Assembly: GCA_039961735.1 (NCBI GenBank)
Contig: JABRVX010000044.1
Location: forward strand, 3,212 to 67,211
Reading direction: 5' to 3'
Length of the DNA: 64,000 bases
From: Fimbriimonadia bacterium
GTDB lineage: Bacteria; Armatimonadota; Fimbriimonadia; Fimbriimonadales; JABRVX01
In this document: positions 29,799 through 33,051 of the stretch, piece by piece
How positions within the stretch are numbered: the stretch's first letter is position 1
Layout of the letters: every line of letters starts with the position of its first letter
Program-made: the position numbers and the translations under genes
The notes under the pieces: generated by a model
The model's input: the letters and a program-made list of their open reading frames with translations, nothing else
Told to the model about the DNA's origin: nothing
The model's database searches: none

Positions 29799-29834
29799 CG
29801 GGGATCAGAGCAAGTTTTCGTCTTGCCCGGTCAG

Positions 29835-30002
29835 GTGCCGCCGATCCACTGCCGCAAAGCAGAGCCCGAACATCTGGGCAACATCTGCCTGCGACTGGGT
29901 GGTAGGCGGCTGGAGTGGGACCCTGTGAAGGAGGACTTCCGGGCAGACGCCGAGGCGAGCCAGATGGTCGCCCGCACGATGCGTGGGGCCTGGAGCGTGT
30001 AG
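29835..30002 (+). pseudogene. C-terminal fragment of a Gfo/Idh/MocA oxidoreductase
   Basis: HLGNICLRLGGRRLEWDPVKEDF..DAEA..M..R..RGAW* with no catalytic domain upstream. Confidence 0.7.
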
Positions 30003-30121
30003 CGCGACCGGCCTCGTCGCCACTCACAGCGGCGGAGTAGCAGTGCTGTGTCCATCCGAGGGCGGATGGGCACATGGGTAACTTCCAACCCACACCGTCA
30101 TCGCGTCGTCACCGCCGACAG

Positions 30122-30225
30122 CGTCATGCTGAGCCCGTCGAAGCAAACGTCATGCTGAGCCCGTCGAAGCAAACGTCATGCTGAGCCCGTCGAAGCAAAC
30201 GTCATGCTGAGCCCGTCGAAGCATA
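30122..30225 (+). repeat. Four tandem 26-nt REP-arm units
   Basis: cgtcatgctgagcccgtcgaagcaaa three times plus a fourth copy ending gcata; no spacers. Confidence 0.95.
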
Positions 30226-30277
30226 CAGCCGTAAGCCGCGAACGTGGCACCGGAAGACGATATCGTTCGGCACGTCC

Positions 30278-30383
30278 CGTCATGCTGAGCCCGTCGAAGC
30301 ATGCGTTCGCAGGCAGCACGTCACGCCTTCAGGTGCTACGGAGGCGGCATCCGGCGTCATGCTTCGACGGGCTCAGCATGACG
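30278..30383. repeat. 106-nt REP-doublet/MITE-like element
   Basis: Perfect 25-nt inverted arms cgtcatgctgagcccgtcgaagcat with a 56-nt interior. Confidence 0.9.
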
Positions 30384-30592
30384 AGCTAGGCAAAGGCCAC
30401 AGGAGCCGTATACCTTCTTCCACTGCGTCTGCGATGCCTCCACTGCCCCTGTGGTGGAGGCCAGCCCGCACTTGCACGCCTCGATGTTTCGCCTGCCAGG
30501 GTTGTGTGCAGACGACAGCGTCCCGTGCCGGTCCGTCGGGATCAAAGGCTGCCGCGTGCGGGGCGAGCGAGCTGTGCGAAGGCAGCCGGGTG

Positions 30593-31327
30593 TTAGCCGT
30601 AGATGCCCAAGGGTATACCGATGGCACGAGCCTTCTCATCGGGCATCCAATACTTCAGGCGCTCCCCGCTGCAGTAGTCGGGGGTACTCGGTCGGCCGTT
30701 GAGATGCGCTGGAGGCATGAGCCGCACACCCCGCAGCTTCCTCTTGCGAAGCACGCGTGCAGCTTGCTCCGTAACCCAGAGGTACGCCGTCAATGGATAC
30801 ACCCTGAAGAAATCGCTCCCGTCCCACTGCGACCAATCTACCAGCTTCGTAGCGTCCTGCTCGGCCGTGTACTTGCGGGAACCGCAGCCCGGGCACCTTT
30901 CCACCAACCGAATGCCCGACTGCTCCGGCGCTACACCACCCCAACCCGTCACCACGAACTCCCACAGCTTCGGTATCGCCGCAGACTCAGCATCCTCCGG
31001 CCGTAGACCCGGATTGTCGTCACACCAATCCCGCTCCTTCGCACGGACCTTGAAACGAACCGCGGGCACCTCCCGGACCTCGTAGCCCGTGAAGCCCATC
31101 TCCCGGAACTACTGCAGAACGTGGTCTTGAATGAAGCATTCGCTGGTCCAAGCCCACACCACGTCGGGCACGGGCCGCCGGGTCAGCAACAACTCGTACC
31201 AGATTCTGCGGCCAGTGACATTGTGGCGCGGGTTGATGGGGCAGCCCTTACCTTTCTCATAGCGGCTGCCCTCCACCTCGGCAAGACCCCGCGTCGAGGC
31301 CGGCTTGTAGAAGTGGTAGAAGTTCAT
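30593..31327 (-). pseudogene. Immunity-like protein (double-CXXCG / WDGSDFF type) split by an in-frame TAG
   Basis: ORFs 31327-31109 and 31099-30593 share a frame; TAG at 31111-31109; motifs GCP, RCPGCG, WDGSDFF. Confidence 0.7.
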
Positions 31328-31328
31328 G

Positions 31329-31882
31329 CTACCAGTCCAATCCGAACCATTTCTTCATCTTCTCTAACTGGTCCATCACCTCGTCTATATCGAGGGCGGG
31401 ACCTTGCGAGGCTGCTCCCAGAACTCCTTCCACCACTTGTTCCAGTGCTCGGGACCCGTGTGCAGTCCTCCCGGCTTCAGGCGGTGCTTCTCCTTCGGCA
31501 CACGCAGAATATACGTGTCTATGTCAATCCCCATCGCACGGAACCGCTCCCTGAACTGCTTTGGGAACAGGTGATGCGCCTCTCCCGGTCCACCGCGTGC
31601 TGCCACAGCCGGGCTGCCAGGTCCGTGAGGCGTTCCTCGCCTTTGCCGAGGTGACGAAGGTTGCGTAGCGCATCGATGCCCTCGTCGTAACAATTCCGGA
31701 CAACGCTGCCCAGCCAGTCGGCAACCTTGTTGTGGGAGAGTGCCTACTCGGGGCCGGTGAAGCTCGTCCTCGCGAATGCGGGGATACGTGTGTGGGCCCT
31801 CTACCGAGAGGTTGTATACCAGCGCAGGACCGGAGAGGCGGGAGACGGAGGTGACCTCCCCCTCGCCCGTACGCGGCAGACG
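31329..31882 (-). pseudogene. Pretoxin-HINT C-terminus plus DUF2380-like nuclease toxin domain, frameshifted
   Basis: EVTSVSRLSGPALVYNLSVEGPHTY; ALSHN in another frame; HHLFPKQF..GIDID.Y...H.L...LHTG...WNKWW..F; C-terminal EVMDQLEKMKKWFGLDW* in a shifted frame. Confidence 0.75.
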
Positions 31883-31924
31883 TCAGCCGCAACGTCTGGG
31901 TATGGGAACTGCTGAGGCACCGAG

Positions 31925-32621
31925 TTACTCGATACGATCGTGCTTAGCCAGATTGTGCCGCGCGCAGAGGAGCTGGATGTTGTCCGCAACGAGGGATGAG
32001 CCGCCTTTGGAATACGGGATGATGTGGTCGAAGTGCAGGTTGTCGGTAGCCCCACACAGACGACATCTCCCACCATCCCTCTTCCAGACTGCCTGTTTCA
32101 CGCTCGGGGGGATCAGGCGGGTGTGCTCGAGGTCCCGCATAACACTGTTCTGTGTCAACGGCGGCTCACGCTCGCGAAGTGTGAGGCGGAACCGACACAC
32201 CGCGCGTCCACCGACCTCTTGGAGCCAGGCATCTCGCAAATCGAACACCCCGTTGAACACCCATATCCCCCGTCTGAGCTTCTCGTAGACATGGACCGGG
32301 TGCGGAGGGGCTAACCCGCACTTATGGCGGTGTGCTGCGTCCCAGAAGCGGCCATTCTGGGTCGGCTGTCCGGCGGGGGTAGTGAGGGGTTGGTCCTGGG
32401 TCTTCGGGTCAGGACCGCCTCGCGTTCTTGGTGCGTCGTGACTCGTAGATGAGGGTGCATCCGTCGTCTTCGATTCGGTCCCGATACGGAGCATCAGAAC
32501 GTCGGGACATGAGGATGACGCTGTGGTCGGCGTGAATTCGGAAGTTCATGCCCTGCTGGAGGTTTTTGCCCTCGAGTTGGCACATCTCTAGGTAGGTAAG
32601 GATATCGCCTTGGCTGACCAT
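31925..32621 (-). pseudogene. HNH endonuclease with an N-terminal domain, frameshifted at 32441
   Basis: IYE-(G)-HDAP junction reads GAG T CAC; C-terminal CRLCG..HFDHIIPYSKGG...NIQLLCARHN. Confidence 0.85.
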
Positions 32622-32724
32622 ATCGGTGGTTTAGAGGCCTTCGTCATTGTAGCCCAGGCGCAATTTGTCAGTGCGATACTGGGGCTTGACAAGGGGACGG
32701 CAAGGGCGAGAACAGAGCAGACGA

Positions 32725-32811
32725 ATGTCTACCATGATTCATCTGCACCTGCATTCGGTGGCAAGCTTTTTGGACGGGGCCGACTTCATCGAGAACCTCG
32801 TGGCCCGGGCG
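32725..32811 (+). pseudogene. N-terminal PHP-domain fragment of DNA polymerase III alpha (DnaE/DnaE2-like)
   Basis: HLHLHSVASFLDGA..IENLVARA matches the start of DnaE-type PHP domains. Confidence 0.6.
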
Positions 32812-32925
32812 GACTTCCTGTTGCCTCCCCCTGACCCCGGAGCCGACGTGAACTGCGATGGCTGGGTGAACACGCTCGACTTGAACGTCGTGCTCAAGAA
32901 CTTCGGGATGGTTGGTGAACCCCAG
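32812..32925 (+). pseudogene. Orphan dockerin-like C-terminal fragment
   Basis: ADVNCDGWVNTLDLNVVLKNFGMVGEP resembles the ends of the genes at 9601-11574 and 47047-48549. Confidence 0.65.
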
Positions 32926-33051
32926 CGGGTGCGGATGACCGGCGGGGCCAATCGTGGGGCGCCCGCCGGTGTCGAAAGCCCCAGCCTGCGAAGGTCCGAT
33001 ACGCTCCACGTCGAACGGACACCCATTCGCGACTTCCAAGGAGTTCTGCTC

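Follow-up and report, generated by a model that had tools for sequence, protein, structure and literature searches.

A very probable pseudogenised toxin–immunity cassette, truncated within its Hint domain, in a Fimbriimonadales genome

The locus described here raises the question of whether the minus strand around position 31600 conceals a toxin gene that ORF prediction has missed, and, if so, whether such a gene could still work. An earlier note, made from the letters of the window (the whole 64,000-nucleotide stretch of DNA that was analysed), had picked out peptides resembling the end of a Hint domain, a histidine-rich toxin and a displaced tail, lying in different reading frames. We located these peptides by three-frame translation of the minus strand of 30500–32700, and all of them (VYNL, ALSHN, HHLFP... 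and the tail) lie where the note had placed them. Our reading is that 31894–30593 on the minus strand is very probably a pseudogenised orphan toxin–immunity cassette of a polymorphic toxin system, comprising a Hint remnant, a linker, a toxin core, a terminal helix and an immunity gene. The cassette is 5′-truncated, headless and dead, and is an ordinary spare part rather than a hidden working system.

From 31894 to 31329 the minus strand encodes, spread across three frames, the end of a Hint domain, a linker of about 50 aa, a core of the DUF2380/SitA6 type and a terminal helix. In frame 2 we find GEGEVTSVSRLSGPALVYNLSVEGPHTY, where VYNL begins at 31819; frame 0 reads ...FTGPE, a stop codon and then ALSHNKVADWLGSVVRNCYDEGIDALRNLRHLGKGEERLTDLAARLWQHAVDRE, which contains ALSHN and places the dipeptide HN at 31734–31729. 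The toxin peptide EAHHLFPKQF...HRLKPGGLHTGPEHWNKWW is in frame 2 (the fuller reading of this frame being GEAHHLFPKQFRERFRAMGIDIDTYILRVPKEKHRLKPGGLHTGPEHWNKWWKEFWEQPRKV), and ALDIDEVMDQLEKMKKWFGLDW follows in frame 1, where it runs into a stop codon at 31331–31329. A single base separates this stop from the ATG of the immunity gene at 31327, the junction reading TAG-C-ATG. The match of these peptides to a Hint–toxin cassette is far beyond chance.

The toxin core (GEAHHLFPKQF...HRLKPGGLHTGPEHWNKWWKEFW; 31388–31585, minus strand, frame 2) was delimited using PF09533, the alignment A2 of ten toxin domains from named genomes, and the indel pattern of a related contig, L023. The 66-aa piece belongs to the Pfam family DUF2380 (PF09533), scoring 34.6 bits against a cut-off of 26.3 (E = 1.6e-8), and it matches the SitA6 model TIGR02269 with E = 4e-8, although at 32.9 bits it does not reach the equivalog cut-off of 85.75 and the match covers only model positions 124–180 of 209. 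The kinship with DUF2380/SitA6 that the earlier note had proposed is thus borne out at the level of the domain; the N-terminal part of a SitA6 lipoprotein is absent, and the carriers in relatives are RHS/Hint proteins. A HMMER scan of 1.84 billion representatives returned 422 homologues at E <= 0.001, the best about 57% identical, and in all homologues listed the domain is C-terminal and ends ...QLxKMKxxFGL. The conserved pattern examined in A2 was HH...F...F...HR...G.H...N..W, and the window copy keeps 10/10 of these invariant family residues (HH, F, F, HR, G, H, N, W).

The last part of the domain (ALDIDEVMDQLEKMKKWFGLDW and its TAG stop; 31329–31397, minus strand, frame 1) was assigned from the ends of the homologues, the frame of L023 and an AF2 model. 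Homologues end ...QLEKMKKDFGLE, which matches the tail; their common ending is ...QLxKMKxxFGL, and what frame 1 encodes is therefore the genuine terminus of the domain, which a frameshift has displaced. As the earlier note had noticed, this helix-like tail abuts the immunity gene. The AF2 model of a homologue (pLDDT 91.6) has a helix at residues 67–80, at the place of the displaced tail, and in this prediction the C-terminal helix is a confidently packed part of the domain.

As to what the domain does, a His-Me/HNH nuclease fold is a candidate, and DNase activity of the family would follow by analogy with the pair pMF1.20/pMF1.19. In vitro, the DUF2380 protein pMF1.20 acts as a DNase, an activity that pMF1.19 inhibits (PMC6091211), and SitA6 and SitI6 correspond to PF09533 and PF09535 (PMC12077181). 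The label AHH for SitA6 comes from PMC8546572; 0/10 of the toxin domains in A2, the window's included, match Pfam AHH (PF14412) even at E <= 10. A Foldseek search of the AF2 model against the PDB gave nothing significant (best match a Cas9 chain, E = 3.1), and a PDB sequence search with the toxin profile gave chance matches only (E >= 0.3).

Upstream of the toxin lies the C-terminal remnant of a pretoxin-Hint (PT-HINT) domain at 31729–31894 on the minus strand, reading VYNLSVEGPHTY...FTGPE, stop, ALSHN. The Hint ORF of L023 (37.3 bits against PF07591), used as a tblastn query, aligns with 31894–31742 at 61% identity. The remnant corresponds to roughly the last 45 profile positions and terminates in the HN cleavage dipeptide, after which come the linker and the DUF2380 core, so that HN stands before the toxin at the C-terminus; the same layout of HN block and then toxin is found in P0081, P0131, L039 and L043. 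It is truncated at its 5′ end, with homology beginning at about 31894 (about position 90 of 137 in the profile) and with no start codon, and a TGA lies within it at 31885–31883. The N-terminal Cys and blocks A and B of a complete domain are missing, and the sequence upstream of about 31894 is unrelated to Hint and is part of an HNH gene.

The window's 47-aa Hint piece has no match to PF07591 at E <= 10, and the only profile it touches is TIGR01443 (intein_Cterm), at 15.3 bits against a cut-off of 15.6. The assignment therefore rests on homology to the Hint fragments of L023 and a second contig, L028, because the window's own piece falls below every profile cut-off. Those two fragments score 37.3 and 32.5 bits against PF07591 (cut-off 27.7, profile positions 57–136), and compared with the intact fragment on L023 the window's piece shows 75% identity at the DNA level (E = 2e-31) and 61% at the protein level (E = 3e-11), so that the Hint terminal motifs which the note had recognised are real. 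Judged by this homology, the window's piece is the tail of a pretoxin-Hint domain. The linker, or pre-toxin stretch, that follows HN (31586–31728, minus strand, frame 0; KVADWLGSVVRNCYDEGIDALRNL...AVDRE) has no family match and is common only to L023 and L028.

Two sequencing runs, X9 (DNA) and X20 (RNA), contain a contig matching the Hint remnant; it departs from the window exactly at 31673, within the minus-strand linker between ...YDEGI and D. Beyond this point its letters are unrelated: either another module stands downstream in that population or part of the sequence has been deleted there. In X9 an additional base is present behind 31796.

L023 (JGI metagenome contig Ga0308414_1066162) and L028 (Ga0308414_1084867), from the same sample, are close relatives of the cassette. 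L023 carries, in order, a REP-like element, a toxin 3′ end, an immunity gene and a Hint fragment. Its toxin end is in one unbroken frame (...IDEVMDYLEEMGKHFGLDW and stop), its immunity gene is intact, and the Hint fragment follows about 195 nt further on (...LEATPSHPVWRVGSGWTQVGELQAGDRLATRTGEVEVGSVSRLSGPALVFNLSVEAPHTYFTGSEQVLSHN, then KVADWL...). The window is 80% identical to it over 913 nt (toxin end and immunity gene) and 75% over the Hint part. In L028 the same Hint fragment stands behind a different gene, and the two contigs are 92% identical from a shared starting point in mid-Hint, behind two different upstream genes. The window's cassette and the fragments of L023 and L028 all begin inside the Hint domain, which upholds the view of the earlier note that orphan cassettes start at a conserved junction.

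The immunity gene (30593–31327, minus strand, 244 codons) lies at the periphery of the PF09535 double-CXXCG/SitI6 family. The only interruption of its frame is an amber codon (TAG) at 31111–31109, codon 73, where relatives such as P0151, and the strains X4 and X5, have TGG (Trp); P0151, an intact 244-aa metagenome protein, is 83% identical to it. The window protein itself has no match to PF09535 and reaches 11.7 bits (E = 0.12) against TIGR02264. Its identity is 35% (E = 1e-21) to the product of the gene that immediately follows the RHS–DUF2380 toxin of G006, a genome from the same taxonomic order, and 38–52% to many other proteins, several of which (those at 44–47%) are annotated as PF09535; the homologue P0159 scores 26.9 bits against a PF09535 cut-off of 25. 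Membership of PF09535/SitI6 thus holds, by sequence comparison, only through intermediate homologues. The second CXXCG motif is present (CPGCG) and the first is CPxxPxH; the latter occurs throughout the subfamily, intact homologues included, and is therefore not a sign of decay.

Members of this immunity family also lie directly downstream of a DUF2380 toxin in G006, L024, L031, L035, L037, L039, L042, L043 and L051. The dN/dS of the window's gene relative to L023 is 0.18, so it was under purifying selection in the past. Within the species we count four non-synonymous changes and one nonsense change against one synonymous change.

Intact versions of the whole architecture exist. In an Asticcacaulis MAG (L043, NZ_JBQCGA010000053.1) a single 1589-aa protein combines a signal peptide, RHS repeats and an RHS core with a complete PT-HINT domain (72 bits) and DUF2380, and the gene that follows belongs to the same immunity family as the window's. 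G002, from the same family as the window genome, has an RHS protein of 1657 aa that is intact and bears PT-HINT twice in tandem; the first of these domains shares 51% identity with the L023 fragment, and a double-CXXC immunity gene lies downstream. At this locus (L062; G002:C13, 9184–4211, minus strand) the two complete PT-HINTs lie about 30 residues apart and are followed by a small KHHV... toxin. The tandem arrangement may have arisen when a cassette was inserted through recombination within the Hint domain. PT-HINT scores above its cut-off in 17 of 201 genomes of the order (Fimbriimonadales), and with the G002 protein this substantiates the earlier suggestion that the lineage has a Hint-released polymorphic toxin. 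In two other genomes of the order, G006 and G016, DUF2380 is attached directly to RHS proteins, and orphan arrays follow.

Among the best 150 of the 422 toxin homologues, a regular-expression search found about 7 with the Hint C-terminal motif just upstream and about 27 with the RHS DPxGL core; the combination of PT-HINT and DUF2380 is confirmed by Pfam in P0081, P0140 and P0142. When named genomes were scanned with the immunity alignment, the toxin–immunity pair turned up in Chloroflexota, Planctomycetota, Nitrospira, Gemmatimonadota, Acidobacteriota and Alphaproteobacteria, and a scan of the contigs of named genomes with a read-through composite query found nothing. Orphans that begin in mid-Hint recur, in L023, L028 and several short matches such as P0131 and L039. 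The earlier note had offered no delivery route; as intact relatives carry the Hint–toxin tip on RHS/YD proteins with signal peptides, the route is an RHS/YD protein.

The PT-HINT class, in which RHS/YD polymorphic toxins have a pretoxin-Hint domain before the toxin, was reportedly recognised by Zhang, Aravind and co-workers in 2012. As in the window, the Hint (ending in HN) precedes the toxin, and the toxin the immunity gene, in the RHS–PT-HINT toxins of Asticcacaulis, G002 and L029; the window, G002 and L029 have the Hint block VxNLSVExPHTYFxGSxQVLxHN in common, and the toxin and immunity families of the window are those of the Asticcacaulis protein. These examples are full-length (1589–2170 aa) and combine a signal peptide and an RHS shell with a complete Hint, whereas the window keeps about 45 Hint residues and has lost its frame. 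In enterobacteria, orphan cdiA-CT/cdiI and rhs-CT/rhsI modules are displaced toxin tips that lie behind the main gene. Like them, the window's tip is 5′-truncated, keeps a pre-toxin homology arm and has its own immunity gene behind it, and arrays of such modules occur in the relatives L021, L023 and L028. Its homology arm, however, is the distal half of Hint rather than the VENN or PxxxxDPxGL region, and the copy, which has decayed, stands by itself in a variable slot rich in REP elements rather than behind a main gene.

The systems that share both protein families are SitA6/SitI6 of Myxococcus xanthus and pMF1.20/pMF1.19 of M. fulvus, in which a toxin of the same family (PF09533, with the conserved His) is directly followed, as in the window, by a gene of the same immunity superfamily (PMC6091211, PMC12077181). 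SitA6 proteins are lipoproteins of about 200 aa passed on by TraAB outer-membrane exchange, whereas the window has no lipoprotein part; the domain there forms, or once formed, the tip of a Hint/RHS protein, and the copy is now a pseudogene. Unlike SitI6, the window's immunity protein has CPxxPxH, not CXXCG, as its first motif.

The lesions were defined relative to L023 and L028. Upstream, all homology to these contigs ceases at about 31894, a point some 30 nt away from the HNH stop codon. A 22-nt insertion (TCCCCGCATTCGCGAGGACGAG; 31763–31784, minus strand, placed to within 2 nt) lies between HTY and FTG of the Hint block; it is absent from L023 and L028 and shifts the frame from 2 to 0, and the X1, X3 and X5 assemblies all contain it, with no indel differences. 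An amber codon (TAG) follows in the Hint remnant at 31744–31746 on the minus strand (FTGPE, stop, ALSHN), where relatives, X5 and X9 have CAG (Gln). The frame changes from 0 to 2 at about 31600–31577, near the border of linker and toxin; as no close relative covers that stretch, this change, near 31590, is inferred from the frames alone. A further change, from 2 to 1, falls at about 31411–31395, where a net 4-nt length difference relative to L023 leaves the last helix out of frame.

Strains were compared using Logan contigs from four studies that cover the stretch. X1 and X3 show 0 differences from the window, and X5, from another study, shows 33 SNPs and 0 gaps across 2201 nt; independent assemblies thus reproduce every indel, and the lesions are not assembly errors. 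In X4 the Hint TAG is already present while the immunity site is still TGG, X5 reads CAG and TGG, and X9 reads CAG at the Hint site. Given that sister strains have sense codons at both amber positions, decay has been stepwise and recent: the shared indels are oldest, the Hint amber came next, and the immunity amber is last and confined to the window's strain.

We propose that the cassette descends from a large secreted protein with RHS/YD repeats, of which it formed the C-terminal tip. The pretoxin-Hint domain of that protein would, from established knowledge of Hint domains, have cleaved itself after the terminal His-Asn, freeing the linker together with a small, His-rich nuclease domain of the DUF2380/SitA6 type, a presumed DNase that would kill neighbouring bacteria. 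The double-CXXCG-type immunity protein encoded by the next gene would bind and neutralise the toxin in the producer. The window copy kept only the last third of Hint, putatively the conserved junction at which spare cassettes recombine into the main gene. With no start codon or secretion part, it has since decayed in steps, the shared 22-nt insertion and the two frame changes preceding the Hint amber, and that codon preceding the amber of the immunity gene.

The cassette occupies a slot of 3.15 kb flanked by a conserved DedA-like gene and a GH35 gene. In G001, a genome of the same genus, the region L053 (G001:C8, 4301–7604) is the syntenic slot of window positions 29807–32956 and holds lipB, long REP arrays and a RAYT-like (IS200-type) transposase gene instead of the cassette and the HNH pseudogene. 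The content of the slot has thus been replaced in G001, and the cassette lies in a variable, REP-rich junk region; the ancestral state of the cassette is not readable from that genome. The long genes neighbouring the cassette in the window are intact.

The REP array of the window includes, at about 30425–30461, a REP-like hairpin (GCCTCCACTGC...GCAGTGGAGGC) that recurs inverted at L023:7–43, which is the point of truncation of the L023 toxin. REP elements seem to take part in breaking such cassettes.

Could the cassette nevertheless serve as a usable silent spare, recombined through its Hint homology into an RHS–PT-HINT parent that lies in an assembly gap, giving that protein a new tip? The recurrence of mid-Hint orphans (L023, L028, P0131, L039) is in keeping with such use, as is the state of the RHS genes elsewhere in the genome. 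Contig C63 (3733 bp) consists entirely of one RHS/YD frame of 1243 aa, open at both ends, and it ends in RDGLGHVRGLMNTSKSITDRYVFDAYGN, the junction at which orphan cassettes start in the RHS orphan arrays on C7 and C39, so the main RHS gene has been split by repeat collapse in the assembly. Contig C7 has a second DUF2380-type tip (WVKHHLFPKALANKF...) at 749–1153, behind a broken RHS-core junction and among RHS orphan cassettes; the next frame, at about 1203–2040, has CDVCG and CEQCK motifs and is likely a double-CXXCG immunity gene. The intact parent that the earlier note had thought might exist elsewhere in the genome was not found: neither a six-frame search with PF07591 at E <= 1 nor tblastn with three Hint queries detected a PT-HINT parent in the assembly (77 contigs, 98.9% complete), although, with RHS genes at contig ends, a Hint-bearing parent could lie in a gap. 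Even with such a parent, any recombinant would be broken by what it took over downstream of the homology arm, three disruptions of the frame and a stop codon; the cognate immunity gene carries an amber codon. We therefore consider a usable spare improbable.

Only a little less probable is that a product of the internal ORF (73–102 aa), which has the HH...HR...H...N motif but not the last helix, is itself toxic and forms a small toxin–antitoxin pair with the immunity protein. The residues of the catalytic motif are all intact, the ORF was predicted by gene callers (P0001, P0002) and the immunity gene was under purifying selection for most of its history. The 73-aa ORF (P0001) spans the catalytic motif, and in formal terms a truncated product may be made from it. 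Such a product would, however, lack the C-terminal helix that is confidently packed in the modelled domain, and no conserved start or ribosome-binding site is evident. Moreover, the window's strain tolerates the amber at immunity codon 73, which argues that the remnant is harmless. We judge a functional short toxin to be unlikely.

A third alternative is that the Hint fragment is the degraded tail of an intein, with the HNH gene upstream as its homing endonuclease, and unrelated to the toxin. The HNH pseudogene (31925–32621, minus strand, in two frames; Pfam HNH, E = 6e-10) lies outside the cassette, its stop being about 30 nt from the 5′ breakpoint, and the TIGR01443 intein_Cterm model, at its 15.3 bits, is the sole profile that the window's piece touches. 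Yet the intact relatives of the fragment score above the cut-off for PT-HINT, while Intein_splicing is below its own. Intein splicing needs Cys, Ser or Thr after HN, and the residue at +1 is Lys in the window, L023, L028 and G002. What follows HN is a toxin domain and not an extein, and in L043 and G002 the domain sits between the RHS core and the toxin. In L023 and L028 the same fragment comes after immunity genes, not after an HNH gene; the window's HNH gene has its own stop, homology to the relatives at the DNA level ends before it, and no host gene with two halves flanking an HNH–Hint unit is seen in relatives. An intein origin is accordingly very improbable.

The two frames of the HNH pseudogene read ...DDGCTLIYE and HDAPRT.... 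X9 and X20 carry two extra bases behind 32442 that join them, so the window copy has a 2-nt deletion; since X20 is a metatranscriptome, an intact HNH variant may be expressed.

Equally improbable is that the frameshifts are sequencing or assembly artefacts in a gene that is intact in the living cell: the genome is indeed a metagenome-assembled draft of 77 contigs, but the indels recur in X1, X3 and X5, the neighbouring long genes are intact, and neither a 22-nt insertion nor a net 4-nt difference is a homopolymer error.

The reading that we prefer is thus that of a dead orphan cassette, and its practical consequence is for annotation, as the ORFs of 73 and 168 aa predicted here by gene callers are pseudogene fragments. 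The cassette adds little new biology; its architecture is known in intact form from public genomes. Two modest points deserve mention: the orphan junction in mid-Hint, and the stepwise decay resolved between strains, which provides a dated example of the death of a cassette: the toxin failed at the outset and the immunity gene at the end, the latter in some strains only. More broadly, the DUF2380/SitA6 domain, best known from myxobacterial lipoproteins of outer-membrane exchange, also occurs as a Hint-released RHS tip in Armatimonadota and at least six other phyla. We put forward, tentatively and as a possibility rather than an expectation, that in Fimbriimonadales and other phyla the distal half of PT-HINT, and not the RHS core, may act as the recombination handle through which RHS proteins exchange their toxin tips, of the DUF2380 type and others. 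The double Hint of G002 would then be a footprint of this exchange, and the immunity genes of dead cassettes may be maintained by selection as free-standing protection against the toxins of neighbours until they too decay.
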